Positions 37,296-60,746 of a stretch of 64,000 nt of DNA are shown here, piece by piece (the first letter of the stretch is position 1; every line of letters starts with the position of its first letter). Made by a program: the position numbers and the translations under genes. Under the pieces are notes generated by a model. That model had not been told where the DNA came from, searched no databases, and worked only from the letters and a program-made list of their open reading frames with translations. This DNA comes from an uncultured Chloroflexia bacterium (GTDB lineage: Bacteria; Chloroflexota; Limnocylindria; Limnocylindrales; CSP1-4): the NCBI GenBank assembly GCA_963707215.1, contig CAVPPB010000001.1, positions 512,001-576,000 of the forward strand, read 5' to 3'.

Positions 37296-37340
37296 CAGTG
37301 CGGATGGGCCCTTCCGCAGGGCCGAGCGGCACGGGGGCCC

Positions 37341-37379
37341 GGGCCGGAGGTCCCGGCCTCGCGCGGGCCACCTGGTCCC
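37341..37379. promoter_or_regulatory. DosR-like box(es)
   Basis: GGGCCGGAGGTCCC at 37341-37354; weaker GGGCCACCTGGTCCC at 37365-37379. Confidence 0.5.
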
Positions 37380-37425
37380 GTCGCGGCGCGGGCCCTGAGC
37401 CGGCGCTGCTCGACCTCGCGAGTCC

Positions 37426-38538
37426 TCAGCAGATCCGGGGCAGCTGCTCGCCGACCAGCATGTCGACGATCCGTTCCGAGCCGACGACGGTCCGGATCGT
37501 CACCATCCCGGGGTGGTCCGCGACGACCGCCCCGATGACGGCGGCGTCCGCGCCCTCGGGCGTCGCCCGGATCGCGGCCAGGGCGGCGCCAGCATCCTCC
37601 CCAGCCACGATCGCCACGCACTTGCCCTCGTTGGCGACGTGGAACGGATCGAGGCCCAGGAACTCGCAGGCCGCTCGCACCGGGCCCGGGATCGGGATGG
37701 CCGGCTCGTCCAGGGTGATCCCGACACCGGACGCAGCGGCGATCTCGTTGAGGGCCGAGGCGAGGCCGCCACGGGTGGGATCGCGGAGGACGTGCACGTC
37801 GGGCACCACCGCGACGAGGCCCGCGACGAGACCGGCCAGCGACTGGGTGTCCGATTCGATCTCTACCTCGAACTCGAGGCCCTCACGGACGCTCATGATC
37901 GCGACCCCGTGGAGCCCGATCGGCCCGGAGAGGATGACCGCGTCCCCGGGTCGGGCCCGGTCGGCGGCCGGCGCCACGTCCGGTGGAACGATACCGATGC
38001 CGGCGGTGTTGACGAACAGGCGATCCGCCGCGCCACGACCGACCACCTTCGTGTCGCCGGTGACGATCGCGGCGCCGGCCCGGGTGGCGGCGGCCGCGGC
38101 CGACGCCGTCACGGCCCGCAGCTCGTCGAACGGCAGGCCCTCCTCGATGACGTAGGCGAGCGAGATCGCCAGCGGTGCGGCGCCCATCATGGCGAGGTCG
38201 TTGACCGTGCCGTTGACCGACAGGTCGCCGATGTCGCCGCCCGGGAAGGCGATGGGGCTGACGACGAACGAGTCGGTCGTGAAGGCCAGCCGCTGGCCGG
38301 CGATCTCCACGATGGCCGCATCGTTGAGCGGTCCGGCCGGCATCGCGCCGGCCAGTGAAGGGGCGATCACGTCGCGCATGAGCGCCCCGGACAGCTGCCC
38401 GCCCGAGCCGTGGCCCAGGATCACCCGCTCGACCTCGGGGAACGGGGCCGGGCAGGCCACGCCATCGGCGTCGATGACGGGGCCGCCGGAGGACCCGGCC
38501 GACTCGCCCCCTGCCCGGGCCCGGTCCAGGTCCGTCAT
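37426..38538 (-). CDS. hypE: Hydrogenase maturation protein HypE
   Basis: LGHGSGG, TTDSFVV, DPTRGG, C-terminal LPRIC. Confidence 0.96.
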
Positions 38539-39689
38539 CGCGACGTCTCCTCTTGCGAAGCCCCGATGGGCCCGGCCATCTGGAGGGGCCGGGCCGGGAC
38601 CCCGATCCCCCGGCCTGCCGCGTAGAAAGCGGCGCAGGTGCCCTCGGAGCTGACCATCGGCGCCCCGAGGGGCTTCTGCGGCGTGCACAGGACCCCGTAG
38701 GCGGTGCAGTCGAGTGGCGCCTTCTCGCCGGTCAGGATGGCCCCGGCGATGCAGGCCGGGTGCTCCTGGGTCGCGATCGCCCCGACGTCGAACTTGGCCT
38801 CGGCGTCGAACCGCGCGAAGCCCGGCTTGAGGCGGTAGCCCGACGACGGGATCTCGCCGATGCCGCGCCACTTGCGCTCGCCCACGTCGAAGACCCGGAA
38901 GACGGTCTCCTGGGCCAGCCGGTTACCCTCCCGCTTGACCGCCCGGACGTACTGGTTCTCGACCTCGGCCCGCCCCTCTTCTAACTGCTTGATCGCCATG
39001 AGGATGCCCTCGAGGAGATCGAGCGGCTCGAACCCCGTCACGACGATCGGCACCCGGTAGCGCTCGGCGATGGGCTCGTACTCGGTCCAGCCCATCACGG
39101 CACAGACGTGGCCGGCCGCCAGGAAGGCCTGGACCTGGTTCGACGGCGACTCCAGGAGCGCCGTCATCGCCGGGGGCACCAGGACGTGGGAGACGAGGAT
39201 GGAGAAGTTGTCGATGCCCAGCTGGCTGGCCTGCCAGACGGCCATCGCATTCGCCGGGGCCGTGGTCTCGAAGCCGACCGCGAAGAAGACGACCTGCTTG
39301 TCCGGGTTGGCCGTCGCGACCTTGAGGGCGTCGAGCGGCGAGTAGACGATGCGGACGTCGGCGCCGCGGGCCTTGAGGGCCAGGAGGTCGGTCGTGGAGC
39401 CCGGGACCCGGAGCATGTCGCCGTAGCTGGTGAAGATGACGTCGGGCCGGGCGGCGATCGCGAGGGCCTTGTCGACCTGCTCCAGCGGGGTGACGCAGAC
39501 CGGACAGCCGGGCCCATGGATCATCCGGACGCCCGGCGGCAGGAGCTCGTCGATGCCCTGCTTGACGATCGTGTGGGTCTGGCCGCCGCAGACCTCCATG
39601 AGCGTCCACGGCCGGGTGGTGACCCGGTGGATCTCGGCGAGCAGCTTCTTGGCCAGGACCGGGTCGCGGTACTCGTCGAGGTACTTCAC
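38535..39689 (-). CDS. hypD: Hydrogenase maturation protein HypD
   Basis: [31 protein letters not shown]. Confidence 0.96.
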
Positions 39690-40015
39690 GCGAGCGGGCC
39701 TCCGCCGCCGGACGGCGCGCCGGGCGCCGGGTCGTCGATCACGGCAGGGGCGCTCATCCCGGGTCCCATCGTGGCGAGCTCCGCCTGGACGAGGTCGCCC
39801 ATCTGCTCGAGGAGCTCGAGCGTCTTGAGTGCCTCCTCCTCGTCGACCTTGCTGATGGCGAAGCCGACGTGGACGATGACGTAGTCACCGACCTCGACGT
39901 CCGGGACATAGGCAAGGCAGGCCTCCTTGCGGACCCCGCCGAAGTCGACGCGACCCATCGGCAGGCCCGCGTCCGCACGGACCTCCATGACCTTGCCCGG
40001 GATGCCGAGACACAT
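39686..40015 (-). CDS. hypC: Hydrogenase chaperone HypC
   Basis: [16 protein letters not shown]. Confidence 0.96.
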
Positions 40016-40030
40016 CGCTCGCCCTCCTCG

Positions 40031-42439
40031 CTACCGGCCGGGACCGGCCACGCGGCCGACCATGCCCGCCATCGTCGCCGCCGCGACGGCCGCCTGTCCA
40101 TAGCTGATGCCACCGTCGTTGACCGGCACCTGCCGGTTGACGTGGACCTCGAATCCGTCCGCCGCCAGGCGGCGCAGGAGCGCGCCGCTCAGCCAGCCGT
40201 TCTGGAAGACGCCGCCCGAGAGGCAGACGACGCCGAGCCCGGTCGAGGCGCGAACGTCGGCGCAGATCGCCCGGGTGACCGTCGCGATCGTCTCCTGGAA
40301 GCGGGCAGCGAGACGTCCCGTCGGGACGCCCTCCTCGACGCCGTCGAGGAGCCCCACCAGGGTCGGCCGCGGATCGTAGACCAGGAGGTCCCCGCGCCGG
40401 ACGAGGCGCCAGGGGAGCGGGTCGTGCCGGCCGGGTTCGGCCGCCATCTCGAGATCGATGGCGGCCTGGGCCTCGTACTCGGCGACGTCGCGCAGACCCA
40501 GCAGCGAGGCAGCCGCGTCGAAGAGCCGGCCGGCGCTCGAGGCGAGCGGCGCATTGAGACTGCGGGCCAGCTGGACCCGGACGATGCCGACCTCCCGGGG
40601 GTCGAGCCGACCCAGGAACGCGCCGGCCGGGCCGTCCGGGGCAGCCAGGTCGACGCCGGCGCCACCGTCGAACGCCTCGGCGCCCAGCAGGTAGCCGAGG
40701 GCCATCCGGTAGGGCTTCCGGACGGCCAGGGCGCCACCGGGCATCGGGGCCAGCCCGAACCGGGCGACCCGGCGGTAGCCGGCCAGATCGGCCACCAGGA
40801 CCTCGCCGCCCCAGAACGTGCCGTCGTCCCCCATGCCCAGCCCGTCGTAGGCGACCCCGATGAACGGCTCGACGAGACCGTGCTCGGCGGCGCACGAGGC
40901 GACGTGGGCGTGGTGGTGCTGGACGGCGATGCGGCGGTCGGAGGGGAAGCGGCGGTCGGCGTACTGGGTGGAGAGATACGAGGGGTGGCGGTCGTGGGCG
41001 ACCCAGCCCGGCTCCAGGTCGAGCAGCCGGGCGAGGTGAGCGAGGTTCTCCTCGAAGGCCCGGTGGACCAGGAGATCCTCGAGGTCGCCGATGTGGGGGG
41101 CGACGTGGGCGCGGCCTCGGGACGCCAGGGCGAAGGTGTGCTTCAACTCCGCGCCCGCGGCGAGCACGACCTCGCCGTCCGGCAGCCGGATCGGCAGATC
41201 AAGCGGCTCCGGGGCATGACCGCGGCCACGGCGGATGATCGACGGCCGGGCGTGCCGGCCGGTGCCGATCACCCGGGTCACCGAATCGTCGTAGCGGGCA
41301 CGGATCCGTCGGTCGTGGGCGAGGAAGGCGTCGGCGATGCCCCCGAGTCGCTCCAGGGCGTCGGCGTCGTCGATCGCGAGGGGCTCGTCGGACAGGTTGC
41401 CGCTGGTCAGCACGAGCGGCCGACCGACTGCCGCGAGGAGCAGGTGGTGGAGCGGCGTGTACGGCAGGAAGAGTCCCACCCGCCGGTTGCCGGCGACGAC
41501 ACCGGCCGCGACGTTGCTACCGGCGGTCTTCCCCGCCCGGATCCGGCAGAGCACGATCGGGCGGGCCGGGTCGACCAGCAGTCGCCGCTCCGCGGGCGTG
41601 ACGACGGCGAGCGACCGGGCCGCCGCGAGGTCGCGGACCATGACCGCGAACGGCTTGGCCCAGCGACGCTTGCGGTCGCGCAGCCGGGCCACCGCGGTCG
41701 CGTCGGTCGCGTCGCAGGCGAGGTGGTAGCCGCCGAGCCCCTTGATGGCGACGATCCGGCTGCTCAGCAGGTCTCCGGCGGCGGCTTCGAGCGCCTCCTC
41801 CGCCCGGGCGACGGGAGCCGGGTCGACGGTCCGGCGGTAGACGAGGATCGGACCGCAGGCCGGGCAGGCGACCGGCTCGGCGTGGAACCGTCGATCGCGG
41901 GGATCGCCGTACTCGCGTGCGCAGGCGGCGCAGAGCGGGAAGTCGCGCATGGACGTCTGCTGCCGGTCGTACGGCAGGGCCTCGATGATCGTGGCCCGGG
42001 GCCCGCAGTTCGTGCAGTTCGTGAAGGGATAGCGGTACCGCCGATCGGACGGGTCGGCGATCTCGCGGAGGCAGTCGTCGCAGGTGGCGATGTCCGGCGG
42101 GAAGAGCCGCTCGGCGGACGGCGCGGAGACGCTCCCGTCGATGACGAAGCCGGAGCCGACGGGCGGGGCGATGGCATCGGGCAGGTCGGCGACCTCCACC
42201 CGGTCGACCCGAGCCCGAGGCGGCGCCTCGCTCCGGAGCCGCCCGATGAGCGAGGCGACGTCCGCGGCCGTTCCGGCGACCTCGACCTCCACCCGCCCGG
42301 CGGCATTGCGGACGCGGCCGTCGAGGCCGAGCTGGTCCGCCAGCCGGAAGACGAAGGGCCGGAAGCCGACGCCCTGGACGACGCCCTCGACGACGATCGC
42401 GCGGCCGACCCGGACGGTGGCGTCAGGGGCCGTCGGCAT
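40031..42439 (-). CDS. hypF: Carbamoyltransferase HypF
   Basis: GVVQGVGFRP, NCTNCGPR, KGLGGYHL, QHHHAH, NDGGISYGQ. Confidence 0.96.
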   Translation of the reverse strand: MPTAPDATVRVGRAIVVEGVVQGVGFRPFVFRLADQLGLDGRVRNAAGRVEVEVAGTAADVASLIGRLRSEAPPRARVDRVEVADLPDAIAPPVGSGFVIDGSVSAPSAERLFPPDIATCDDCLREIADPSDRRYRYPFTNCTNCGPRATIIEALPYDRQQTSMRDFPLCAACAREYGDPRDRRFHAEPVACPACGPILVYRRTVDPAPVARAEEALEAAAGDLLSSRIVAIKGLGGYHLACDATDATAVARLRDRKRRWAKPFAVMVRDLAAARSLAVVTPAERRLLVDPARPIVLCRIRAGKTAGSNVAAGVVAGNRRVGLFLPYTPLHHLLLAAVGRPLVLTSGNLSDEPLAIDDADALERLGGIADAFLAHDRRIRARYDDSVTRVIGTGRHARPSIIRRGRGHAPEPLDLPIRLPDGEVVLAAGAELKHTFALASRGRAHVAPHIGDLEDLLVHRAFEENLAHLARLLDLEPGWVAHDRHPSYLSTQYADRRFPSDRRIAVQHHHAHVASCAAEHGLVEPFIGVAYDGLGMGDDGTFWGGEVLVADLAGYRRVARFGLAPMPGGALAVRKPYRMALGYLLGAEAFDGGAGVDLAAPDGPAGAFLGRLDPREVGIVRVQLARSLNAPLASSAGRLFDAAASLLGLRDVAEYEAQAAIDLEMAAEPGRHDPLPWRLVRRGDLLVYDPRPTLVGLLDGVEEGVPTGRLAARFQETIATVTRAICADVRASTGLGVVCLSGGVFQNGWLSGALLRRLAADGFEVHVNRQVPVNDGGISYGQAAVAAATMAGMVGRVAGPGR

Positions 42440-42893
42440 GGGGACGCTCGCGATCGCCGGTGGCCGCTCGAACGGCCGGGTCGGCGGAGGGGGAGGACGG
42501 CACGGCACCATCGTGCACGAGCCCGTCAACGCCGGCGAGGCGACCCGGCCCGGCGGTGCCGGACGACGCCGCCGCCGCGTCCCACTCGAGCTCGATCGAC
42601 TCGTCGGACGAGGATCCCAGGGTAGGCCCGCCGCAGCCGGGGCAGGTGCCGCCCGGAAGACCGTCCGACGAGGTGCCGCAGGAGGGGCACCAGCGCGGTG
42701 CCGGCCGATGGACGATCGTCAGCCGAACCGGATCCAGGCCCGGGGCGACGACCTCCAGGTGGAAGCGCAACGAGGCATCGAAGTCGGCCGGCGCATCGTG
42801 GCCGCCGGTCACCAGGACGCGAACGGGGACGCCGTCGATCCCGTGGTCGCGGATCGCGTCGGCGATGGTCCGGGCGATCCCAGCCTCGTGCAC
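42423..42893 (-). CDS. hypA: HypA-like nickel metallochaperone (divergent)
   Basis: MHE N-terminus, CPSC...CPGC. Confidence 0.75.
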   Translation of the reverse strand: MHEAGIARTIADAIRDHGIDGVPVRVLVTGGHDAPADFDASLRFHLEVVAPGLDPVRLTIVHRPAPRWCPSCGTSSDGLPGGTCPGCGGPTLGSSSDESIELEWDAAAASSGTAGPGRLAGVDGLVHDGAVPSSPSADPAVRAATGDRERPHADGP

Positions 42894-42899
42894 CGGTCG

Positions 42900-43397
42900 T
42901 CAGGCTCCGACCGCCGCCGCGACGTCGGCCGCCGCTGCCATGGCCTCGTCGACGGCGAGCCGGACCGCCCGGGGGACGGCGGCCTCGACCGCCGGCGTGA
43001 GGTCGAGGCCCACGGCGATGGTCCCCGGCTGGATCGCCACCAGGGCGACCCGGTCCGGCAGGGTCCCGGTCAGCCGGGCGACCTCGATGAGGTCGCCCAC
43101 GCCGACCTGGTGGGGCGAGACGTGGCCGCCGAGGGCCGAGTGCAGCTCGTCGCCGCGGAGGACGCCAACGGTCCCCGGGGCGGCTCGGAGGTCGACGGCA
43201 TCGACCATGACGAGGGCCGCGCAGTCGCCGATCATCGGCAGCAGGTCGAGACCCAGGGTGCCGCCGTCGACCGCCCGGATGCCGGGCGGCAGGTCCAGCG
43301 CCGCCACCTCGTCGGCGACGCGGATGCCGACCCCCTCGTCCTGGAGGAGGACGTTGCCGACGCCCAGGACGAGGACGCCGCCGTCGGGACGGCTCAC
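42900..43397 (-). CDS. Hydrogenase maturation endopeptidase (HyaD/HybD family)
   Basis: GVGNVLLQDEGVG, VDGGTLG, VDAV, SPHQVG. Confidence 0.92.
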   Translation of the reverse strand: MSRPDGGVLVLGVGNVLLQDEGVGIRVADEVAALDLPPGIRAVDGGTLGLDLLPMIGDCAALVMVDAVDLRAAPGTVGVLRGDELHSALGGHVSPHQVGVGDLIEVARLTGTLPDRVALVAIQPGTIAVGLDLTPAVEAAVPRAVRLAVDEAMAAAADVAAAVGA

Positions 43398-44167
43398 TCG
43401 GCGACCCCCTGGACGTCCCAGCCGCCGTCCCGGGCCTCCTGGATCTCCCGGCGGGTGACGAACTTGTTGCCGCTGAAGATGCTCGACATGAGGCCGTTCC
43501 GCTCGAAGTGGTCGACCAGGAGCGCGCTGTAGATGTGGTGGATCATGAAGGCGATGATCGCCCACATCAGCAGGTGGTGGATGAGGCGGACGGTCTGGAC
43601 GCCAAGGCCGGTCGTGAGCCACCCGAACAGCGTCGCCCAGGGCTCGGTGCCGTGGACCGCGGCAAGCGCGAAACCGGTGAAGGTCTGGAGCAGGAACAGA
43701 CCGAAGACGATGATGTAGGTGCCGGCTGCCAGGGCGTTGTGCCCCAGGACCGTCGGCACTTCGCTCCGGGCGAACACGTACCAGCCGGTCTGGTGACCCA
43801 TCTCCCGGAACTGGTGTCGGCTGTGGGGGAAGAAGGCCCGCCAGTTCGAGAAGCGGTTCCCGACGAAGAGCCAGTAGGTCCTCAGGATGCCCGACGCCAC
43901 GAAGATGAAGGCGAAGAGCATGTGGATCGAGCGGACGACGCCCATCGTCCGCTCGTCGGCGCCGAAGAAGAACGGATCTGCGATATAGCCGCCGGTGACC
44001 GTCAGGACGGCGACCGAGCCGAAGGTGATCCAGTGGGTCACTCGCACCGGGACCTGCCAGACGTAGATCCGGACGCGCTGGCGGGCCAGCGGGATGGTGA
44101 TGTCGCCCTCGATGGGGCCGTTGGAGTCCTGCTGCGAAGCCGGGACGGCCGTGCCGGATGCGGTCAT
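43394..44167 (-). CDS. cybH: [NiFe]-hydrogenase b-type cytochrome subunit
   Basis: VWQVPVRVTHW, GHNALA, IHHLLMW...HHIY. Confidence 0.92.
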   Translation of the reverse strand: MTASGTAVPASQQDSNGPIEGDITIPLARQRVRIYVWQVPVRVTHWITFGSVAVLTVTGGYIADPFFFGADERTMGVVRSIHMLFAFIFVASGILRTYWLFVGNRFSNWRAFFPHSRHQFREMGHQTGWYVFARSEVPTVLGHNALAAGTYIIVFGLFLLQTFTGFALAAVHGTEPWATLFGWLTTGLGVQTVRLIHHLLMWAIIAFMIHHIYSALLVDHFERNGLMSSIFSGNKFVTRREIQEARDGGWDVQGVAE

Positions 44168-44180
44168 CGCGCGCCTCCCC

Positions 44181-45890
44181 TCAGACGACCCGGATCTCGA
44201 CGGACGAGCCGCGCGCCGGGTCGTGGACGTGCACGGCGCAGGCCATGCAAGGATCGAAGGAGTGGACGGTCCGAAGCACCTCGACCGGCTTGGTCGGGTC
44301 GGCGATCGGTGTCCCGATCAGGGCCTCCTCCCAGGCGCCGCGGTTGCCCGCGGCGTCACGGGGTGAGCCGTTCCAGGTCGAGGGGACCACGAACTGGTAG
44401 TTCTCGATGTTCTGGCCGTCGATGACGATCCAGTGGCCCAGCGAGCCGCGCGGCGCCTCCTCGAGGCCGAAGCCCTCGGCCCGCTCGGGCCAGCTCTTCG
44501 GGTCCCAGAGAGAGACGTCGGCGATGGCCAGGTCGCCGCGGTCGAGGTTCGCCGACAGCTCCTCGAGCCAGGTCGGCAGGCGAGCCGCCAGGACCTGGGT
44601 CTCGACCGCCCGGGCCGCGATCCGGCCGAGGGTGCTGAAGAGCGCCTCCGGACCGACGCCGAGGGCGCCCAGGACGCCGTCGACCGCGGCCTTGACCTCG
44701 GCGTTGCCGGCCACGTAGGCAACCAGCATCCGGGACAGCGGACCGACCTCCATCGGCTGGCCGTCGTAGCGGGGCGCCTTGAGCCAGCTGTACTTGTCGA
44801 ACCCCTCGAGGGTGTCGAACGGCGGTGTCGGGCCCGCGTACCTCGGGTTGGTCTCGCCCTGGCCCGGGTACTTGAGGGCGGCGTCGTCGTCGCTGTACTC
44901 ATAGTACGAGTGGGCGACCGTCTCGGCGATCTTGGTCGGGTCGACGTCCACGACGGTGGAGATGTCGCGGGCCATGATCCGGCCGCGCGGCAGGTAGAAC
45001 GCCGACGGCTGGCCGGAGTCGTCCTCCGGGAACTCGCCGTAGGACATGTAGTTGCCGATGCCGGCGCCGATGCCGGCCCAGTCCTTGTAGAACCCGGCCA
45101 CCGCCAGGACGTCCGGGATGTAGACCCGGTCCACGAAGTCCTTGGCCTTCTGGAGGAGGCTGGCGACCTCCGAGATGTGGCGGGCATTGAACGCGGTCGG
45201 CGAGTTCGGGTCGAGACCCAGGGCCATGCCGCCGACGACGTAGGTCTGGGGGTGCGGGTTCTTGCTGCCGAGCAGGGCGTGGATCCGGATGACCTCGCGC
45301 TGCCAATCGAGCGCCTCGAGGTAGTGGGCGACCGCCAGGAGGTTGGCCTCGGGCGGCAGCTTGTAGGCCGGGTGGCCCCAGTAGCCGTTGGTGAACGGGC
45401 CGAGCTGGCCCGAGTCGACGTAGGCCTGGAGCTTGGCCTTGACGCCCTCGAAGTACGAGACGCTCGAGAGCGGCCAGTCGCTGATCGACTGGGCCAGGCG
45501 CGAGGTGGCCAGCGGCTCGGCGCTGAGGGCCGACACGACGTCGACCCAGTCCAGGGCGTGCAGGTGGTAGAAGTGGATGACGTGGTCCTGGACGTACTGG
45601 ATGCCGGCGATGAGGTTGCGGACCAGGCGGGCGTTGGTCGGGATCCGGATGTCCAGGGCGTTCTCCACGGCCCGGACCGAGGCCAGGGCATGGACCGTGG
45701 TGCAGACGCCGCAAGCCCGCTGGGCGAAGACCCAGGCATCGCGCGGATCGCGACCCTTGAGGATCAGCTCGAGCCCGCGGAACATCGTCCCCGAGCTCCA
45801 GGCGTCGGTCACCGCGCCGCCGGAGACCTCGACCTCGATCCGCAGGTGACCTTCGATCCGGGTGATCGGGTCGATGGCGATCCGGGTCAT
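44181..45890 (-). CDS. Group 1 [NiFe]-hydrogenase large subunit (possibly group 1f)
   Basis: DPITRIEGH, L1 QRACGVCTTVH, L2 SFDPCMACAVH plus a cleavable tail. Confidence 0.95.
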   Translation of the reverse strand: MTRIAIDPITRIEGHLRIEVEVSGGAVTDAWSSGTMFRGLELILKGRDPRDAWVFAQRACGVCTTVHALASVRAVENALDIRIPTNARLVRNLIAGIQYVQDHVIHFYHLHALDWVDVVSALSAEPLATSRLAQSISDWPLSSVSYFEGVKAKLQAYVDSGQLGPFTNGYWGHPAYKLPPEANLLAVAHYLEALDWQREVIRIHALLGSKNPHPQTYVVGGMALGLDPNSPTAFNARHISEVASLLQKAKDFVDRVYIPDVLAVAGFYKDWAGIGAGIGNYMSYGEFPEDDSGQPSAFYLPRGRIMARDISTVVDVDPTKIAETVAHSYYEYSDDDAALKYPGQGETNPRYAGPTPPFDTLEGFDKYSWLKAPRYDGQPMEVGPLSRMLVAYVAGNAEVKAAVDGVLGALGVGPEALFSTLGRIAARAVETQVLAARLPTWLEELSANLDRGDLAIADVSLWDPKSWPERAEGFGLEEAPRGSLGHWIVIDGQNIENYQFVVPSTWNGSPRDAAGNRGAWEEALIGTPIADPTKPVEVLRTVHSFDPCMACAVHVHDPARGSSVEIRVV

Positions 45891-47125: not shown

Positions 47126-47277
47126 GGGCCGTCCGGCGATCTCGTATGGGCCGACAGGCCCTCACTGCCGGGACCTCCGGACCGGATGGAACGCATTCGT
47201 ATGGTCGCATGGATCCCCGCAGCGGGCGGCCCGTCGGGTTCGGGCCATCGGTCCCGGCCGACCGGGCCCTCCCACCC
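47126..47277. promoter_or_regulatory. Phased array of DosR-like boxes in the divergent hydrogenase/ybaK promoter
   Basis: Sites start at 47126, 47148 (GGGCCGACAGGCCC), 47170 (GGGACCTCCGGACC), 47242 (GGGCCATCGGTCCC) and 47264; 22-bp period within each group. Confidence 0.65.
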
Positions 47278-47386
47278 TGTCGCGACCGTCGCGACGGGCA
47301 CGACGATTCGGCCTGTCCGCCAGACGACGAACCCGACGGACCCGGCGACCGGTCCCGGTGGGGCGCAGGGCGGGAAGGAGGGCGCG

Positions 47387-47911: not shown

Positions 47912-48025
47912 GCGGATCAGGACCGAACGTCCTCCGGGGCGGTCCGGACCGCCCGTCATGAGGCATCCTCCGGCCCTGCCGACGACCGTGGTCCGCGCGC
48001 AGGCTGTGCCCGGAGGTGCGACCTG

Positions 48026-48313: not shown

Positions 48314-48314
48314 G

Positions 48315-50494: not shown

Positions 50495-50496
50495 CC

Positions 50497-51060
50497 ATGG
50501 AGCTGTCCACGATCTTCGCCGGGTTCGGGGGTCAGGGCCTTCTCTTCGCCGGGACCGTCCTGGCACGGGCCGCGATGTCCGAGGGCCGCGAGGTCCTCTG
50601 GATCCCCTCCTACGGACCGGAGATGCGCGGCGGGACCGCCTCCTGCACCGTCATCCTGGGCGACCGGCCGATCGGCTCGCCGGTCGTCGACCGGGCCGAC
50701 GCAGCGGTCGTCCTCAACCCACCATCCCTGGCCAGGTTCGAGCCGCTGATCGCACCTGGCGGTCTGCTGGTCCTGAACGTCTCCCTGATCGAGGCCGAAC
50801 CCGCCCGCCGCGACCTCGAGGTCGTCGCGCTGCCCTGCACGGCCCTGGCGCGCGAGGCCGGGGACGACCGACTGGTCAGCGTGGTCGCACTCGGAGCGCT
50901 GGTGGCCCGCCGGCCGGTCGTCTCGCGGGCGGCGATCCATGCGGCGATGGCCGCCGTCGTGTCGGCCAAGCGCCCGGAGATCCTGGACGCCGACCTCGCC
51001 GCGTTCGACACGGGCTACGACCGGACGGAGGTCCCGGTGGGGGCGTCGGCGGACCGCTGA
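50497..51060 (+). CDS. 2-oxoacid:ferredoxin oxidoreductase gamma subunit
   Basis: AGFGGQG, PSYGPEMRGG. Confidence 0.92.
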   Translation: MELSTIFAGFGGQGLLFAGTVLARAAMSEGREVLWIPSYGPEMRGGTASCTVILGDRPIGSPVVDRADAAVVLNPPSLARFEPLIAPGGLLVLNVSLIEAEPARRDLEVVALPCTALAREAGDDRLVSVVALGALVARRPVVSRAAIHAAMAAVVSAKRPEILDADLAAFDTGYDRTEVPVGASADR

Positions 51061-53159: not shown

Positions 53160-53269
53160 GCGGGCAACGCTGCGCGACCGGCAGGCGCGCGACAAGAGCC
53201 GAACCTACCTCGAGAGGGCACGTCGGGCCGGGCCGGCGATATCGACGGTCTCGCCGGGGAAGAGCGGGT

Positions 53270-54799
53270 TCAGCCCTTGATGACGGCCAGTGGACGGAGA
53301 CGGGCGACCGAAGTGATCAGGCCGGCGATCCCGGCGGTCCGGACGACCGCCTCGACGTCCTTGTAGGCGATCGATGCCTCCTCGGCGAGCAGGTCGCGTC
53401 GCTCGGCCCGGACGATGATCCCGGCCGCGGCCAGCTGGGCCGCCACGTCGATCCCTCGAAGCTCGCGGCTGGCGGCGTGCCGCGAGAGGTTCCTTCCCGC
53501 TCCGTGACAGGATGACCCGAACGCATCGGCCATCGAACCGGGCGCGCCCGCGGCGACGTACGAGGCACGGCCCATGTCCCCGGGGATCAGGACCGGCTGG
53601 CCCACAGCCCGGTAGGGTTCGGGCACGTCGGGATGGCCGGCCGGGAAGGCGCGCGTGGCGCCCTTGCGATGGACGCAGACTCGCCGGTCGCGCCCGGCGA
53701 CCCGGTGGGTCTCCAGCTTGGCGATGTTGTGGGACAGGTCGTAGACCTGACGGAGCCCGAGCGACGCCGCGGACGCGCCCAGGACCCGCTCCATCGCGAT
53801 CCTGACATGGTCGACGATGAGCTGGCGGTTGGCCCAGGCGAAGTTGGCGGCAGCCGCCATCGCGCCGAGGTAGGCGGTCGCCTCCGGGGATCCCAGCGGG
53901 GCGCAGGCCAGCTGGCGATCGGGGAGCTGGATCCCGAACCGCGACAGGGCTGCGTCCATCGTGGCGACGTGATCGGTGCAGACCTGGTGACCAAGGCCCC
54001 GCGATCCGCAGTGGACCATCACCGTGACCGCGCCCGCCTCCAGGCCGAAGGCCGCGGCGGCGATCGGATCGTCGATCCGGTCGACGACCTGCAGCTCCAG
54101 GAAGTGGTTCCCGGAACCGAGCGTCCCGAGCTGATCAGCCCCCCGCTCGCGGGCCCGCGGGCTGACCGCCGCCGGATCCGCCCCGGCAAGGCGACCCTCC
54201 TCCTCGGTCCGGGCAAGGTCGTCGTCCGTGCCGTGACCGCGAGCGACGGCCCAGGCCGCGCCCTCGCGGAGGACCGCGTCGAGCTCTTCGCCGCGCAGCT
54301 TCCGGCCAAGGCGAGCTCCGACCCCGGACGGCACGGCCCGGAAGAGCTCATCGGCCAGTGCCGCCAGGCGCGGCCGGACATCGTCCTCGGCAAGGTCCGA
54401 GCGCAGCAGCCGGACGCCGCAGTTGATGTCGAAGCCGATGCCGCCGGGGCTGATCACCCCGTCGTGGGCGTCCATGGCGGCGACCCCACCCACCGGGAAG
54501 CCGTAGCCCCAGTGCACGTCGGGCATCGCCAGCGACGCTCCGATGATGCCGGGCAGGGTCGCCACGTCAGCGACCTGCACGAGAGCGGGATCGCCACGAA
54601 GCGGCCGGATGAGGGTGTCGTCGGCGAAGACGAGGCCCTCGACCCGCATCGCCCGAGCCTCGTCCCTGGGGATCCGCCAGCGGACCTCGTCCAGCCGCTC
54701 CAGGGCGGGAACCGCCCGGGACGATCGCGGCCCGGCCGGACCAGCCGACCGCGGACGATCCCGCGGGCGGCGGCTCTCCCGGCGACCGTGGCGTGCCAT
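53270..54799 (-). CDS. rtcB: RtcB RNA ligase (archaeal/eukaryote-like long type)
   Basis: MPDVHWGYGFPVG, GFDINCG, GSGNHFLE, HNIAK, HRKGAT, CHGAGR. Confidence 0.95.
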   Translation of the reverse strand: MARHGRRESRRPRDRPRSAGPAGPRSSRAVPALERLDEVRWRIPRDEARAMRVEGLVFADDTLIRPLRGDPALVQVADVATLPGIIGASLAMPDVHWGYGFPVGGVAAMDAHDGVISPGGIGFDINCGVRLLRSDLAEDDVRPRLAALADELFRAVPSGVGARLGRKLRGEELDAVLREGAAWAVARGHGTDDDLARTEEEGRLAGADPAAVSPRARERGADQLGTLGSGNHFLELQVVDRIDDPIAAAAFGLEAGAVTVMVHCGSRGLGHQVCTDHVATMDAALSRFGIQLPDRQLACAPLGSPEATAYLGAMAAAANFAWANRQLIVDHVRIAMERVLGASAASLGLRQVYDLSHNIAKLETHRVAGRDRRVCVHRKGATRAFPAGHPDVPEPYRAVGQPVLIPGDMGRASYVAAGAPGSMADAFGSSCHGAGRNLSRHAASRELRGIDVAAQLAAAGIIVRAERRDLLAEEASIAYKDVEAVVRTAGIAGLITSVARLRPLAVIKG

Positions 54800-55287
54800 C
54801 ACACGTCCAGGTAGGCGGTGAGGATCCAGCCCGACGCCCCATCGGACTCGACCGCGAGGCCGTGATAGGTCGCCGACTTCACGTCGGCTCGGCGCAGGAT
54901 CCGCACGCCGTCGAACGGCTCGGTGACGATCGACGCCTCGAGCTCCCAGGTCCCGGCCGAGGTCGTCTCGATCCTCGACACGTTCACGCCGACGAGCGCG
55001 CCGTCGACGTCGATCGTGCCCACCAGCTCGTTGAGCCAGGCGTAGGCCAGGGCGACCGGGTCCCGGCCGGCCAGGCGAACGGTCCGCTCCGTCCTCGGCT
55101 CGCTCGGGCCATCGGAGGCCGCACCTGACCGAGCGTCCCGTCGCTCGGCGGCGAGGTCGGCCAGGGCCAGCCCGGCCTCCTCGAAGACGGCGACGAGGTC
55201 GGGGCCGCGCGCCTGGACGCCGACGTCCGCCGTGTGGGGCAGGACCCGGTGGCCCCGCCCGGTCGAGCGGCGCCCGCCCGCGGTCAC
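54799..55287 (-). CDS. Archease
   Basis: HTADVG, WLNEL, VKSATYH, C-terminal LDV. Confidence 0.92.
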   Translation of the reverse strand: MTAGGRRSTGRGHRVLPHTADVGVQARGPDLVAVFEEAGLALADLAAERRDARSGAASDGPSEPRTERTVRLAGRDPVALAYAWLNELVGTIDVDGALVGVNVSRIETTSAGTWELEASIVTEPFDGVRILRRADVKSATYHGLAVESDGASGWILTAYLDV

Positions 55288-55478
55288 TCGCCCGTCGGGG
55301 GATCCACCGGCCAGCTGCGGGTCAGGCCATCGGGCGACTCGTAGCCACCGTCGGCCCGGAGGTGCCAGTCCTCGCCCGGCTCGGTGTACTCGGTGCGCTG
55401 CCAGCCCTCCGGCGTGAGGACGAAGGTGTCTCCCGGCTCCGGCGCGTCGTCGTGGGCGCTGGACAGGGCGTCGGTCAT
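55284..55478 (-). CDS. Small acidic hypothetical protein
   Basis: GGAGGG RBS, 64 aa, stop overlaps the archease start (GTGA). Confidence 0.6.
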   Translation of the reverse strand: MTDALSSAHDDAPEPGDTFVLTPEGWQRTEYTEPGEDWHLRADGGYESPDGLTRSWPVDPPTGE

Positions 55479-55543
55479 GTCGTCCCTCCGCTGCAAGGCT
55501 CGACGGATGGACCCAGCATGCCCCAGACGTTCGGCGGTGGGAA

Positions 55544-55658
55544 GAGCCGGCCGACCCGGATGCCGCGTGGCCCCGGGCGGACCCGGTCGGTCGGGACCGG
55601 CGGCCCGGTCGGTCGGGACCGAGGGGACCTCGGGGATCCCGAGCTCAGCGGGGATACT
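55544..55658. promoter_or_regulatory. DosR-like boxes and 22-bp-period direct repeat in a divergent promoter
   Basis: GGGACCGGCGGCCC at 55593-55606; CCCGGTCGGTCGGGACCG at 55582 and 55604; -10-like GATACT at 55653. Confidence 0.6.
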
Positions 55659-55691
55659 GGTGCGGCCTGGCCGGTCCCGCTCGGAGGCCCG

Positions 55692-56729
55692 ATGACCGAC
55701 GCCGTGTCACTCGCGACCCCGCTGCTCCTGTTCGGGGCGTCCTCGCTCCTGGTCATCGGATCCGGCGTGGTCCTCGCGCGCGAAGGCGACCAGATCGCCC
55801 ACCGGACCAAGCTGGGTGGCATCGGGGTCGGCGCCTTTCTCCTCGCCGGCGCGACATCGTTGCCCGAGATCGCCACGGACATCTCCGCGTCACTCGCCGA
55901 CGCCCCGGACCTCGCCGTCGGCGACCTGTTCGGGTCGAGCATGGCGAACATGGCGATCCTCGCGGTGATCGACCTCATCCATCGGGGACGCGTCTGGCCG
56001 AGCGTCGGCATCGGCCATGCGCGACTGGCGGCGGTGGCCATCGCCCTGACGTCGATGGCCGTCCTCGGGATCCTGGCCGGCGGCGGGATGTCGATCGGCT
56101 GGGTCGGGGTCGTGCCCGTGGCCATCGCGACCGCCTACGCGGCGGCAGCGCTGTGGATGCGGCGAACCAGCGGCGAAGGTCGTAACGCTGAGGAGCGCCC
56201 GAGGGACAAGGAGATCATCGAGCCGATCGGCTGGGCGGCCGAGGAGCAGGCGACGCCGCTGCGGATCATCGCGCTGCGCTTCGCCGCCGCCGCCCTCGTG
56301 GTGCTCGTCTCGGCGCCGATCCTGGCCGTGTCAGCCAAGTCGATCGCCGATCAGACGGGGATCGGCCAGACCTTCGTGGGGACGGTGCTCCTGGCGGCCT
56401 CCACGTCGCTCCCGGAGCTGGTCGCTTCTCTTGCGGCCGTCAGGATCGGCGCCTACGACCTCGCGGTCGGCAACCTCTTCGGCAGCAACGCGTTCAACAT
56501 GGTGGCTCTCCTGGCGGCTGACATCGCCTATCTGCCCGGACCGATCCTGGCCGCCGTCGAGTCGGTCCAGGCGATCGCCGGCATCGGGGCGATCCTGCTC
56601 ATGGCGCTCGCCCTGATGGCCGTCGTCCACGGCGCGCGGACCCGGCTACGAAGGCTGGAGCCTGATGCGCTCCTCGTCCTCATCACCTGGGTCGCGCTCC
56701 TCGTGATCATCTACGCCAGCGAGCCATGA
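55692..56729 (+). CDS. Ca2+/cation antiporter (CaCA, YrbG-like)
   Basis: Alpha repeats ATSLPE...GSSMAN and STSLPE...GSNAFN. Confidence 0.9.
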   Translation: MTDAVSLATPLLLFGASSLLVIGSGVVLAREGDQIAHRTKLGGIGVGAFLLAGATSLPEIATDISASLADAPDLAVGDLFGSSMANMAILAVIDLIHRGRVWPSVGIGHARLAAVAIALTSMAVLGILAGGGMSIGWVGVVPVAIATAYAAAALWMRRTSGEGRNAEERPRDKEIIEPIGWAAEEQATPLRIIALRFAAAALVVLVSAPILAVSAKSIADQTGIGQTFVGTVLLAASTSLPELVASLAAVRIGAYDLAVGNLFGSNAFNMVALLAADIAYLPGPILAAVESVQAIAGIGAILLMALALMAVVHGARTRLRRLEPDALLVLITWVALLVIIYASEP

Positions 56730-59428
56730 CGTCCGACCCGACCGCTCCGCAGCCGGTCGCTACGCCGCTCGTGGAGCATCCGTGGACCCTGCCGGCCGCT
56801 GATGTCACCGAGCGCTTGGGCAGCGACGCCGAGGTGGGGCTGGATGCGGGAGCCGCCACTGACCGCCTGGCCCGCTACGGCCCGAACTCGCTCATGGAGC
56901 GGAAGGGCGTGCCGGTCTGGCGCCGCTTCCTCGAGCAGTTCGCCAACGCGATGATCCTCGTCCTCCTCGCGGCGGCCGCGGTGACGACGCTCATCGGCGA
57001 TCTCAAGGACACCGTCGTGATCCTGGCGATCGTGCTCCTCAACGCGGTCATCGGCTTCGTCCAGGAGTACCGCGCCGAGCAGGCGATGGCGGCCCTCAAG
57101 AGGATGACCAGCCCGACCTCGGTCGTCGTGCGGGACGGTCGTCCGGAGGCGGTGCCCGCCGAGACCCTCGTGCCGGGGGATGTCGTCAGGCTCGAGGCCG
57201 GCGACGTGGTCACCGCCGACCTCCGGCTCCTCGAGACGCGGGCCCTGCGGATCAACGAGGCGGCCCTGACCGGCGAGTCCGAGCCGGCGGAGAAGACGAG
57301 CAGCCCTCTTCCGGAGGTCAGCGAGGCGGTCCTCGCGGACCAACGGAACATGGCCTTCAGCGGGACCGCGGTGACCTACGGGCGGGGTCGCGGCGTCGTG
57401 GTAGCGACCGGCATGAGCACGGCCCTCGGGCGCGTCGCCTCGCTGCTCCAGGAGGGACCGGCGGGCCGGACGCCGCTTCAGCGACGTCTCGACGGGTTGG
57501 GTCGCTGGCTGGCGGTCCTCGCGCTGGGCGTGTGCACGCTCGTCTTCGTTGCCGGCATCCTCCGGGGCGAGCCGGCGGACGTGATGTTCCTGACCGCCGT
57601 CAGCCTCGCCGTCGCCGCCATCCCCGAGGGCCTCCCGGCCGTGGTCACGATCGCCCTCGCCCTCGGAGCCCGGAGGATGGCCCGTCGCGAGGCGCTGATC
57701 CGCAAGCTGCCGGCCGTCGAGACGCTGGGCTCGGTCACCGTGGTCTGCTCCGACAAGACCGGCACCCTGACCGAGAACCGGATGCTCGTCGAGCGGGTCT
57801 GGACCCCGAACGCCGAATACACGGTCACCGGTGACGGCTACGCGCCCGACGGCACCATCGACCCCGATCCCTCCGCGGACGAGGGCTTCGCGTCGCTCGT
57901 CCGGGTTGCCGCGGCCTGCAACGACGCCTCGCTCCGCGGGCCCACCACGGCCGGCGGGGCGTGGGGCGTCACGGGCGATCCGACCGAGGGGGCACTCCTT
58001 GCGCTGGCCGCCAAGTCGAGCGTGGGGGACGCGTTCGATCCTGATCATCCCAGACGGATCGAGGAGCTGACCTTCGATGCCGATCGACGCCGGATGGCCA
58101 CCTTCCATGACGCCGACGACGGCGTCTGGGTGGCCGTCAAGGGAGCGCTGGAGTCAGTGGGCCCCCTCGTCGACGCGAGCGAGCGCGACGTGGTCGCCGC
58201 CGCCGAGCGTCGGGCCGGCGAGCTCGCGGCGGACGGGTTCCGCGTGCTGGCGCTCGCCGAGCGGACCGTGTCGAGCGTACCGACACCACCGCAGGCAGCC
58301 GAGCACGACCTTCGGCTGCTGGGCCTGGTCGCCATGGCCGATCCGCCGCGGGCGGCGTCGGCTCCCTCGATCGAAGCGGCCCGCCGAGCCGGCATCCGGC
58401 CGGTGATGATCACCGGCGACCACCCGCTGACGGCCTCGGCGATCGCCCGCCGCATCGGCCTGCTGGAAGGTGAGGTCCGGGTGCTCACCGGAGCTGAGCT
58501 GGCGGACCTCGACGAGGTGACCTTCCGGGTCCTCGTGGAGGACGTCGCCGTATACGCCAGGACCAGCCCCGAGCAGAAGGTCCGCATCGTCGACGCGCTC
58601 CAGCGTCGCGGTGAGGTCGTTGCCATGACCGGTGACGGCGTCAACGACGCGCCGGCCCTTCGCCTGGCCGACATCGGGGTGGCGATGGGGATCATGGGGA
58701 CCGAGGTCTCGAAGGAGGCCGCCGACATGGTCCTGGCCGACGACGACTTCGCGACGATCGTCCGGGCCGTCGAGGAGGGCCGCCGGATCTATGACAACAT
58801 CCGGCGCTTCGTCCGCTATCTGCTGGCCACCAACACGGCCGAGGTCGTCGTCGTCTTCGCGGCACCGTTCCTCGGCCTGCCGCTCCCGCTTCAGCCGGTC
58901 CAGATCCTGTGGATCAACCTGGTGACCGACGGGCCGCCGGCGCTGGCCCTGGGCGTCGAGCCGGTCGAGCCCGATGCGATGAAGCGGCCGCCGCGCCCGC
59001 CGAGTGAGTCCATCCTGGGCCGCGGTCTGTGGCAACGGGCGCTGGCTACGGGACTCCTGATGGCGATGGTCACCCTCGCGGTCCAGGCGCTGGCGATCGC
59101 GCAGGGTTGGGCCTGGCAGACGATGGTCTTCACGACCCTCGCCTTCCTCCAGTTGGCCAACGCCCTGGCGGTCCGGTCCGAGCGTCAGTCGGCCCTGTCG
59201 CTGGGTTGGCGCTCGAACGTCCCGCTGATGGCGGCCGTCGTCGCCATCACGCTGGTCCAGCTGGCACTGATCTACGTGCCGCCGCTGCAACCGGTCTTCG
59301 ACACCGAGGCTCTCGGCCCGATCGAGCTGGCGGTCGTGCTGGTGGCGTCGTCGGTCGGCTTCGTCGCCGTCGAGTTCCAGAAGTGGCTGGAGCGGCGTCT
59401 CGCGGACCGGCGCGGCGTCAGCGCTTGA
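56726..59428 (+). CDS. P2A-type cation (Ca2+) transporting P-type ATPase
   Basis: TGES, IPEGL, DKTGT, TGDH, GDGVND, WINLVTD. Confidence 0.95.
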
Positions 59429-59783
59429 GCAGCCGGAACAGGACGCCGCGGATCGTCAGGATCACCAGGATCCCCATGAGCGACCCGAAGAGGATCTGAC
59501 GGTTACGGTCGATCGCGGGGACCCACTCGACGTCCTGGCCGCGGATGACGAACGCACCCGCCGGCTTCGCGGTGACGCCGAAACCGACCCCCGATCCCTC
59601 TCCCTCGATGGCGGACTCCCCCGCGGCGCGGGTCGCCGGCGTCACCCCGCTGCCACCGCCGCCCCCGCCCATGACGGACGAAGCGGTGATGACGATGGCG
59701 CCGTCGCGCTCGACCGGCTCCGAGTAGACCGTCGTCGCGGTCATCCCCTCGCGGATCTTGCTGAGCAGCTCGCTGGCATCCAT
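59418..59783 (-). CDS. YtfJ/GerW-like protein
   Basis: VYSEPVERDG, GGGGGG, GFGVTAKPAGAFVI, C-terminal TM. Confidence 0.75.
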   Translation of the reverse strand: MDASELLSKIREGMTATTVYSEPVERDGAIVITASSVMGGGGGGSGVTPATRAAGESAIEGEGSGVGFGVTAKPAGAFVIRGQDVEWVPAIDRNRQILFGSLMGILVILTIRGVLFRLLKR

Positions 59784-59931
59784 AGCGGCACCTCCTGTCC
59801 CAAGCCTACGCCGGCTGGCCCGGGACCGCAGACGGCAGCCTTCGCGATGGGTCGAGCGCTGCCGCGCATCGAGGAGATCGGAAGGGAGCCGGTGCGCTCG
59901 GGATGGATGACCCGGCGCGGCGCGGCGGGTC

Positions 59932-60360
59932 CTAGCTGCCGCGCTCGGCCTCCTCGGCCATCGCCCGGACCAGGTCGCTCGTCGAGACGACACCGATCGG
60001 CAGGCGCTCGTCGTCGTCGGCAACGACCACCAGGCGGTGGACGTGGTGGCGCTCCATCTTCCGGGCCGCGTCGGCCAGCGGTGTCGACCGGAGCACCGTG
60101 ATGGCCGGGCTGGACATCAGGTGACGGACCGAGAGGCCCGGCCAGTTGGCCCACAGGAACTCGGTGGCTCGAGCGCGCAGGAGGTCCGTCTGGGAGAGGA
60201 CGCCCACCAGCAAGCCGCTGCCGTCGACCACGGGCAGGCCGTGGACGTGGTGCTCCTCCATGAGCTTCACCGCATCGCCCAGGGGGGCGTCGCTGCGGAC
60301 GACGACGAGCTCGCCGGCCATGACGTCGCCGACGCTCGAGCCAGGGATGGGATCGGTCAT
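59932..60360 (-). CDS. Stand-alone tandem CBS domain protein
   Basis: VGDVM...GLPVVD...GVLSQTDL; VRHLM...RLVVV...GVVSTSDL. Confidence 0.92.
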   Translation of the reverse strand: MTDPIPGSSVGDVMAGELVVVRSDAPLGDAVKLMEEHHVHGLPVVDGSGLLVGVLSQTDLLRARATEFLWANWPGLSVRHLMSSPAITVLRSTPLADAARKMERHHVHRLVVVADDDERLPIGVVSTSDLVRAMAEEAERGS

Positions 60361-60617
60361 CGCGGGGATTCCTCCGGATGGGACGCCGCATCCCGCCGCT
60401 CGGACGGCCCCTGGGCGATCGTCGCCAGGAAGGCCGCCGTCGAGACCGCGAAGGATCCGCCGTCGACGTGGGACGTGGCGGGGCAGGCACGAGCCGCCTC
60501 GGGGATGCGCGTGTCGAGATGGGCGACCGCCTGGGAGCCGACGGCGATCGCCGCCACGTCCGGGGACCGGGGTCCACGGGACGCGCCGAACAGCCCGGAC
60601 GCTGGGGTCGCGGTCAT
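60357..60617 (-). CDS. Possible small leaderless ORF upstream of the CBS gene
   Basis: ATG about 7 nt after -10-like TACCCT; stop overlaps the CBS start (ATGA); no recognisable motif. Confidence 0.3.
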   Translation of the reverse strand: MTATPASGLFGASRGPRSPDVAAIAVGSQAVAHLDTRIPEAARACPATSHVDGGSFAVSTAAFLATIAQGPSERRDAASHPEESPR

Positions 60618-60623
60618 GCCCCG

Positions 60624-60690
60624 AGGGTATCCCCGACCGGAGTCACCCGCTGGGTGGCCCCGGTCCCGAATCCCGGGGGCCGTTCGGCAC
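60624..60690 (-). promoter_or_regulatory. -10-like hexamer plus tandem DosR-like boxes
   Basis: TACCCT (60629-60624); GTGGCCCCGGTCCC at 60654-60667; GGGCCGTTCGGCAC at 60677-60690. Confidence 0.5.
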
Positions 60691-60746
60691 CGCGCCCTCG
60701 CCCGCCATCCCTGCTCGGGCGTGGCCGTTCGGCGGGCAGGCTCACC

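Follow-up and report, generated by a model that had tools for sequence, protein, structure and literature searches.

Phased arrays of a DevR/DosR/OsdR-type operator-like dyad around hydrogenase operons of a Limnocylindria (Chloroflexota) genome: a predicted regulon beside its two-component system

The 64-kb window of DNA analyzed here (G000:C1:512001-576000) belongs to a 3.26-Mb Limnocylindria (Chloroflexota) genome of five contigs with 72% G+C; from 34 kb onward it carries an island of operons for two [NiFe] hydrogenases (Hyd1 and Hyd2), a ferredoxin and 2-oxoacid:ferredoxin oxidoreductase (VOR), sulfide handling, RNA repair and calcium transport, with tandem copies of a 14-bp dyad in their promoter regions (Table 1). 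These phased dyads very probably constitute the operator arrays, equivalent to mycobacterial Dev boxes, of an adjoining response regulator of the DevR/DosR/OsdR type; the whole would be a system of a kind known from Actinobacteria, here predicted for a member of the Chloroflexota. Genes were named by Pfam and NCBIfam profile searches of translated gene calls, which were made with our own rough caller based on G+C content at third codon positions (GC3; 2889 genes, ~84% coding, some starts misplaced). Positions given as window-equivalent continue the window numbering past its right end (64,000).

Scored against GGGMC-N4-GKCCC, all dyad sites that an earlier note on this DNA had named are present at their coordinates with zero to three mismatches, and the boxes at 37298, 37319, 37365 and 47941 are additional to them. 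Each island promoter has two to four boxes, and approximately 12 promoters or transcription units carry arrays between window-equivalent 37.3 and 78.1 kb, the devS-devR unit included; the regulated stretch thus measures ~41 kb, where ~30 kb had been estimated before. A phased pair was defined as two dyads with at most three summed mismatches, and the comparison of the island with shuffled sequence takes spacings of 21-24 bp. In the 13 intergenic regions of 34-64 kb (1971 bp), 10 such pairs were found against 0.20 +/- 0.46 in dinucleotide-preserving shuffles, none of 500 reaching 10, and the control spacing of 27-30 bp gave no pair in the same regions; six regions to the right of the window hold seven pairs against 0.22 in shuffles (0 of 500 reaching seven). 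Of the five promoter regions for which arrays had been claimed, four hold a phased pair, and the vor region misses the threshold. When every spacing from 8 to 60 bp was scanned across the genome, again with at most three summed mismatches, the pair counts of non-coding DNA peaked at 22 bp (43) and 23 bp (39), each other spacing of 13-60 bp giving 8-26, and coding DNA had no peak (24 at 22 bp, 23 at 23 bp). The ybaK-like and CaCA gene starts were miscalled, with the consequence that both promoters count as coding in these genome-wide dyad and spacing counts; they were put back by hand for the shuffle test and for the hexamer table discussed below. When the whole genome was scanned in 30-kb sliding windows, the four top pair counts (12, 11, 10, and 10; mean 2.04, standard deviation 1.85) all fell in C1:545-600 kb, which is the island with its right-hand continuation, and the same windows hold one to six pairs at four control spacings. 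The arrays differ from random expectation, belong specifically to non-coding DNA and accumulate in the island. The 22-bp period proposed earlier is accordingly found as a genome-wide, non-coding signal at 22-23 bp; the proposed enrichment of the motif in the island stands for phased arrays, by shuffles and by genome-wide rank, and falls for the single exact dyad, as discussed further on.

The observation that no suitable regulator is encoded in the window was correct, and the NarL-family regulator and GAF histidine kinase that might have been expected nearby lie just outside it. A profile scan of the genome for the GerE domain gave 19 matches, and one of these lies 6.4 kb past the right end of the window; this DevR/DosR orthologue (L001:6362-7057, minus strand) forms a kinase-regulator pair (devSR) at G000:C1:582362-584724, or window-equivalent 70362-72724, on the minus strand. 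Its best match in the PDB is DevR of Mycobacterium tuberculosis (3c3w; E 1.8e-56, 194 bits, residues 17-222), followed by VraR (8.7e-45), and NarL also ranks behind DevR. The stretch K-T-V-K-N-Y-V-S, presumably of the DNA-contacting recognition helix, is identical between the regulator and DevR; K-T-V-K-N occurs in only one of the 11 GerE-type proteins compared from this genome, the DevR orthologue, and is absent from the other ten. Directly upstream lies the gene of a 551-residue GAF-HisKA_3-HATPase kinase, whose GAF domain (residues 191-334) has its best matches in the haem GAF domains (GAF-A) of DosT (2vzw, 7.4e-31) and DevS (2y8h, 1.3e-30; 2w3d); this domain stands directly before HisKA_3, after ~190 residues without a family match. 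It retains the stretches H-P-x-M-R-x-F-L-G-V-P and L-Y-L-T, which presumably hold the proximal histidine and the distal tyrosine. Judged by sequence, the regulator and the kinase are orthologues of DevR and of DevS/DosT.

The motif was also recovered independently, by palindromic expectation maximization (EM) run de novo on the promoters of 35 hydrogenase orthologues from other species, leaving the window aside. The resulting motif, G-[G/T]-G-C-C, a W-rich center of 4 nt, and G-G-C-[C/A]-C (10.6 bits), is the dyad of the earlier note; it has the same core as the OsdR consensus AGGGCCGATCGGCCCT, and it is in register with the DevR half-site G4G5G6A7C8T9. This half-site is the one seen in the DevR-DNA crystal structure (PMC3177182), and the 16-nt OsdR consensus was reported upstream of osdR orthologues and validated by electrophoretic mobility shift assay (EMSA) (PMC5069765). 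The proposed likeness to the DosR box holds for the conserved G-G-G-x-C half-sites 4 nt apart; half-site position 4 is mostly C, as in OsdR, and not A, and GGGCC-N4-GGCCC is nearer to the Streptomyces OsdR consensus than to the GGGAC core. EM applied de novo to 300 nt upstream of devS in 70 species returned a GATC/TCGA-type signal, mostly 150-280 nt upstream, that was read as coding sequence of the neighboring gene and discarded; devS starts are hard to place, as the N-termini vary.

Table 1. Operons of the island and the operator-like boxes found upstream of them. Positions are in window numbering, continued past 64,000 where marked window-equivalent; boxes are given by first position, and mismatches are in box order. 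Gene names rest on profile searches (Pfam for the first operon).
Feature	Position	Strand	Boxes	Mismatches	Box spacing
ArsR-type regulator, DsrE-like, TusA, DsrE-like, TusA, sulfide:quinone-oxidoreductase (SQR)-like flavoprotein operon	34092-37260	minus			
Four-box array, ArsR-DsrE-TusA-SQR operon	37298..37378		37298/37319/37341/37365	2/1/0/1	steps 21, 22, 24 bp
hypE, hypD, hypC, hypF	37426-42529	minus			
Membrane [NiFe] hydrogenase (Hyd1): small subunit, large subunit, cytochrome b, maturation protease	42900-47050	minus			
Three boxes, membrane [NiFe] hydrogenase operon	47126..47183		47126/47148/47170	2/0/1	exact 22-bp period
Two boxes, ybaK-like gene	47242..47277		47242/47264	0/2	22 bp apart
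YbaK/aminoacyl-tRNA-editing-domain protein gene (ybaK-like)	47387-47911	plus			
Three weak boxes, ferredoxin-VOR operon	47920..47976		47920/47941/47963	2/2/3	steps 21, 22 bp
4Fe-4S ferredoxin and alpha, beta, gamma subunits of VOR	48026-51060	plus			
Small protein without family match, archease, RtcB ligase, radical-SAM, Memo-like	51151-55478	minus			
Proximal box, leftward archease/RtcB operon	55544..55557		55544	2	
Boxes in the 22-bp tandem duplication 55576-55629, CaCA/P-type ATPase operon	55570..55628		55570/55593/55615	3/0/2	
Na/Ca-exchanger-family (CaCA) protein and Ca-type P-type ATPase	55683-59428	plus			
Small protein without family match, CBS-pair protein, YtfJ-like protein	59418-60617	minus			
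Two boxes, small-protein/CBS/YtfJ operon	60654..60690		60654/60677	2/1	23 bp apart
Sulfhydrogenase-like [NiFe] hydrogenase operon (Hyd2), 3' part: protease, large, small, start of fused beta/gamma subunit	60747-64000, continues past window end	minus			
Hyd2 promoter boxes, beyond window	window-equivalent		65673, 65696, 65740		
devS promoter boxes, beyond window	window-equivalent		72742, 72766, 72788		

The boxes stand in a fixed relation to putative core promoters. The six -10-like hexamers named in the earlier note are found at their positions, each starting 30.5-31.5 nt from the center of its box, and the predicted class II activator geometry holds, relative to such hexamers, at these six promoters and at six more. 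In 12 of 12 island promoters an NANNNT hexamer starts 30.5-32.5 nt from a box center (five at 30.5, six at 31.5, and one at 32.5), and the remaining 67 tabulated offsets (7.5-76.5 nt) are each represented by zero to two promoters; the box center lies 42.5-44.5 nt from the start codon in half of the 12. In the hydrogenase promoter, taking CACCAT (47123 to 47118, minus) as the -10 hexamer places box 47148 at approximately -43.5 and box 47126 at approximately -21.5. GACGAT at 47302 starts 31.5 nt from the center of box 47264 in the ybaK-like promoter, a layout kept in the same-genus relative L083, and CAGGCT at 48000 starts 30.5 nt from the center of box 47963 in the vor promoter. Of the divergent promoters at 55.5 kb, the leftward one has CATGCT (55520 to 55515, minus) starting 30.5 nt from the center of box 55544, where L083 combines an exact box with CATCCT at the same distance; the rightward one has GATACT at 55653, 31.5 nt from the center of box 55615, and this too is kept in L083. 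At the CBS operon, TACCCT (60629 to 60624, minus) ends 6 nt before the start codon at 60617 and the box center lies 43.5 nt from that codon, distances from which a leaderless mRNA is predicted.

The CoA-transferase gene of the predicted regulon shows the same arrangement across species. In 29 further species its upstream dyads (at most two mismatches) cluster at -42/-43 (12), -64 to -66 (16), and -87 to -89 (5), a tally measured from the ATG, with the true box center half a base further upstream. An ATG-anchored footprint of 35 species, made without pattern selection, has T (18 of 35), A (26), g, A (19), c, T (26) at -12 to -7, C at -1 in 30 of 35, and conserved G/C columns at -72 to -59 and -50 to -37. 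Since this -10 hexamer ends 6 nt before the ATG and a Shine-Dalgarno sequence is missing, the CoA-transferase mRNAs are most likely leaderless, which would place the box centers near -43.5 and -65.5. Leaderless-type signals, with a T-A-g-A-c-T type -10 ending 6-7 nt before the ATG and no Shine-Dalgarno sequence, were found at window position 60617, at window-equivalent 65637, 68590, 70262, and 78079, in L084, L087, L090, and L101, and in 29 of the loci L103-L182; leaderless mRNAs thus appear to be produced from many genes of this bacterial family.

The hydrogenase small subunit has relatives at 70-81% identity and the regulator at 79-93% (all of the best 80 loci), in both cases from metagenome-assembled genomes; the relatives are labeled Chloroflexota, 'Candidatus Limnocylindrales' or Limnocylindria, not Actinobacteria, and no cultured isolate is among those found. 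A close orthologue of the regulator (at least 81% identical) occurs in 20 of 24 same-family genomes, the four without one being 66-83% complete, and none was found in the 16 sister-family genomes (1.0-1.4 Mb). The kinase adjoins the regulator in 79 of 80 loci of other species, with a divergent USP gene upstream in 23, and the island is syntenic within the genus; VOR, CBS, second hydrogenase, CoA-transferase, and devSR genes stay clustered in other genera too. The conservation in orthologous promoters that would be expected of functional operators is borne out, in that boxes recur with their positions in other genera at the hydrogenase, CoA-transferase, vor, and devSR promoters. Of 35 relatives, 15 have a phased pair before the hydrogenase small-subunit gene (control spacings 1, 6, 2, and 3); before the CoA-transferase gene such a pair occurs in four of six, and none was found upstream of genes internal to operons (VorB 0 of 10, Hyd2L 0 of 4, DevR 0 of 9, HypD 0 of 1). 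Around devSR of 79 other species, 27 phased pairs lie upstream of devS (controls 4-8), 11 downstream of devR (controls 1-6), and 59 in the remaining flanks (controls 8-16); the devS upstream boxes are kept in L084 and L101, and the vor promoters of other genera have a proximal box ending TTCGGCCC, followed by TTGC. Counted over whole genomes, a double-dyad pattern occurs 67 times at 22 bp vs. 33 times at 28 bp in the genome studied here, and 701 vs. 525 times in 24 same-family genomes taken together, 19 of which have the higher count at 22 bp, and the 16 sister-family genomes have almost no matches to either pattern; these counts, which span 41 genomes, neither support nor test co-occurrence with devR.

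The closest known counterpart is the DevR-DevS/DosT system of M. tuberculosis, with which the Chloroflexota pair shares the best solved regulator relative, the identical recognition stretch and the type of kinase GAF domain. M. tuberculosis DevR promoters are described as always having two to four tandem boxes, with tgs1 box centers at -42.5 and -63.5 in a step of 21 bp, and DevR binding to poorly conserved neighboring sites as cooperative and dependent on helical phase (PMC3177182); the island promoters likewise have two to four tandem boxes with degenerate secondary sites, the proximal and next boxes at approximately -43 and -65, and in both systems the two-component genes carry boxes of their own. 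The differences are the phylum, a half-site that is mostly GGGCC instead of G-G-G-A-C, the gene order of kinase then regulator, the position of the GAF domain directly before HisKA_3, many targets that are predicted to be leaderless, and a regulon centered on two hydrogenases, VOR, and CoA-transferases. OsdR-OsdK of Streptomyces coelicolor has the same GGGCC-N4-GGCCC core in its consensus; unlike the system described here, it is actinobacterial and, according to its published description, tied to development and stress (PMC5069765). In Mycobacterium smegmatis at low oxygen, two clusters each with a devR copy are reported to be induced, together with the adjacent [NiFe] hydrogenase cluster msmeg_3931-3927 (Hyd3) (PMC2799521). 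The sulfhydrogenase-like operon 5 kb from devR, with boxes upstream, forms a parallel to Hyd3; the M. smegmatis case consists of expression data from a cultured actinobacterium, whereas the present one is a prediction from sequence and includes, as a further member, the membrane-bound hydrogenase whose operon also encodes cytochrome b.

Hydrogenases, ferredoxin/VOR, CoA-transferases, sulfide handling, a CBS-pair protein, a Ca-type ATPase, and a USP gene in or next to one island suggest a low-oxygen or reductive-stress programme, and we infer that the island genes are induced at low oxygen; ferredoxin, CBS-pair, USP, and Ca-type P-ATPase genes are also members of the M. tuberculosis regulon. 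The USP gene adjoins the island at L001:10176-10667, and boxes were not found for it. In the proposed mechanism, the kinase would sense O2, NO, CO or redox state through its predicted haem-binding GAF domain and phosphorylate the regulator, whose dimers would bind a good box first and then, cooperatively, the weaker neighbors one double helical turn (21-24 bp) away. The dimer at approximately -43, abutting the -35 region, would recruit RNA polymerase (class II activation) and thereby switch on the two hydrogenases, ferredoxin/VOR, the CoA-transferase, the sulfide-handling operon, RtcB/archease, the calcium pump, CBS and other small proteins, and the two-component system itself, several of the target mRNAs presumably starting at the start codon. 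Autoregulation would be in keeping with the boxes found upstream of the two-component operon.

A number of observations weigh against such an operator function, and some of them would suit an explanation in which the sites have no regulatory meaning and reflect chance in 72% G+C DNA, GC hairpins or terminators, or local tandem duplications. For the exact single dyad the excess lacks significance: the window holds five vs. 2.79 +/- 1.73 in shuffles, a count reached by 18 of 100 shuffles. Exact dyads number 59 in non-coding and 66 in coding DNA genome-wide, and 35 of the 59 are GGGCC-N4-GGCCC, many of which look like plain GC hairpins; a reversed-pattern control of the double dyad is as frequent in this genome (66 and 74; 66 vs. 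67 for the 22-bp pattern). The 20-nt, 10.6-bit EM matrix finds island intergenic DNA enriched just 2-2.7-fold at thresholds of 7-8 bits, an enrichment that is gone above 10 bits; this matrix is too weak for single-site scanning, and a site taken singly is not very informative. At 55576-55629, in the CaCA/ATPase promoter, the array consists of a literal 22-bp duplication, the top-scoring of 28 Tandem Repeats Finder rows for 37-61 kb (2.3 copies, 87% matches, score 85); this suggests in turn that joint duplication of box and spacer is a way for arrays to lengthen. When five promoter regions were compared with the genome by short-word blastn, a 21-nt element proved common to 47248-47268 and both repeat copies at 55.58-55.62 kb, the other output being almost all noise. 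Chance or structural origins are nevertheless very improbable, given that no shuffle of 500 reaches the observed pair count, that the spacing peak is confined to non-coding DNA with the island top-ranked in the genome, that box positions are kept across genera while the surrounding sequence diverges, and that the distance to the -10 hexamer is fixed in all 12 promoters. Among the limitations, all "non-coding" counts depend on the GC3-based gene calls, and the 12 of 12 is somewhat inflated by the choice of the proximal box between two candidates in three promoters (Hyd1, devS, g78079). Boxes are also missing where they might be looked for, namely before hypF (42530-42899), rtcB, and the CBS gene itself; the vor boxes are poor (two to three mismatches) and below the pair threshold; a phased pair is lacking in 20 of 35 orthologous hydrogenase promoters and any dyad in six of 29 CoA-transferase promoters; and the steps, at 22-24 bp, differ from the 21 bp described for M. 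tuberculosis (PMC3177182).

If the arrays do bind a protein, it might be another one, a different GerE/NarL regulator or an uncharacterized factor, with the DevR orthologue acting elsewhere. The genome has its 19 GerE-domain matches, dyad pairs also occur upstream of two other such regulators (C3:907651 and C2:165076), and the link between regulator and boxes, like the operators, transcript starts, and induction as a whole, is read here from DNA sequence; yet K-T-V-K-N is common only to the DevR orthologue and DevR among the 11 GerE-type proteins compared, the motif core equals the EMSA-tested OsdR site (PMC5069765), phased pairs flank devSR in the 79 other species, and box number, phasing, and the -43 position copy the DevR architecture (PMC3177182), so that another protein as the binding partner is quite unlikely. 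It is also unlikely that the DevR orthologue acts mainly as a repressor or as a dual regulator, with boxes in the -35/-10 spacer blocking RNA polymerase until a signal removes them. Three promoters (Hyd1, devS, g78079) do have an extra box 21-24 nt nearer the gene, inside this spacer, and the hydrogenase box at approximately -21.5 (47126-47139) is kept in the same place in L012, L033, and L015 of other genera; such spacer boxes would not be needed by a pure activator and would leave room for a repressive component. Nine of the 12 island promoters have no spacer box, however, and the conserved positions in the 29- and 35-species footprints, at approximately -43, -65, and -88, are upstream of the core promoter and match DevR activating sites (PMC3177182). 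Activation by the adjoining DevR/DosR/OsdR-type regulator, through the phased arrays, remains the reading to which we give a high probability.

Soils, sediments, and fresh water harbor Limnocylindria in abundance, and we know of no work on the regulation of their energy metabolism. As far as titles and the openings of abstracts allow to judge, with subscription journals outside the coverage, no description of such a regulon in the Chloroflexota was found in the literature. Through the predicted regulon, two hydrogenases, 2-oxoacid:ferredoxin oxidoreductase, CoA-transferases, a calcium pump, and the functions of sulfide handling and RNA repair would all be tied to a putative haem-type gas sensor. 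All genomes of the group encountered here are metagenome-assembled, and for such a group the regulon would provide a first readable regulatory circuit, and with it a testable prediction of how these bacteria behave as oxygen falls. The detailed promoter architecture of the mycobacterial dormancy regulator appears to hold in another phylum. DevR-like matches (E <= 1e-60, 50-92% identity) occur in 132 of 401 sampled Chloroflexota genomes, and the rule may accordingly be general. A wider proposal, speculative and in our estimation rather less probable than its opposite, is that the DevR system, together with the complete promoter grammar of tandem boxes spaced by one double turn, a proximal box near -43 and autoregulation, is an old, largely vertical feature of Chloroflexota and Actinomycetota, whose core task would be to switch on H2 metabolism and ferredoxin-linked fermentation when oxygen runs out; the mycobacterial "dormancy" regulon would then be one late specialization of a widespread hypoxia-to-H2 switch in soil Terrabacteria, and the hydrogenase box at approximately -21.5 a second, repressive layer.

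Several smaller observations concern individual promoters and genes of the island. The proximal box of the sulfide operon is centered 44.5 nt from the ArsR start codon, and between the boxes and this codon lies an inverted repeat, ATGCGC-N4-GCGCAT (37280-37295), with a comparable GCGCAT pair in the orthologous region of the relative L091; this repeat may be the operator of the ArsR-type repressor itself, giving the sulfide operon two inputs. No gene was called and no box found in the 370 bp (42530-42899) that separate the start of hypF from the hydrogenase protease gene's end; a minus-strand open reading frame at 42423-42893 overlaps the hypF start, so that an overlooked small gene and a wrongly placed hypF start are the alternatives.

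Elsewhere in the genome, a second GAF-HisKA_3 kinase, a 601-residue membrane protein (C1:859512-861317), has a phased pair 36 nt upstream (C1:859439-859476); it was considered as a DosT-like second sensor and rejected, its GAF domain having no match to the DosT/DevS GAF domains, and it is probably a sensor of another kind that DevR might control. Two near-identical GerE-type regulators lie 4.5 kb apart (G000:C2:164292-164987 and C2:168783-169502); their receiver-like N-termini begin L-A-V-F-D-F where the other GerE-type regulators compared have V-D-D-H, and the former has a phased dyad pair 89 nt upstream. Only once in the entire genome do two exact dyads stand 22 bp from each other (G000:C3:484472-484507; L184:472-507); this pair is far from the island, 63 nt upstream of the gene of a 255-residue MerR/HTH_17-type protein, and may mark an outlying member of the regulon.

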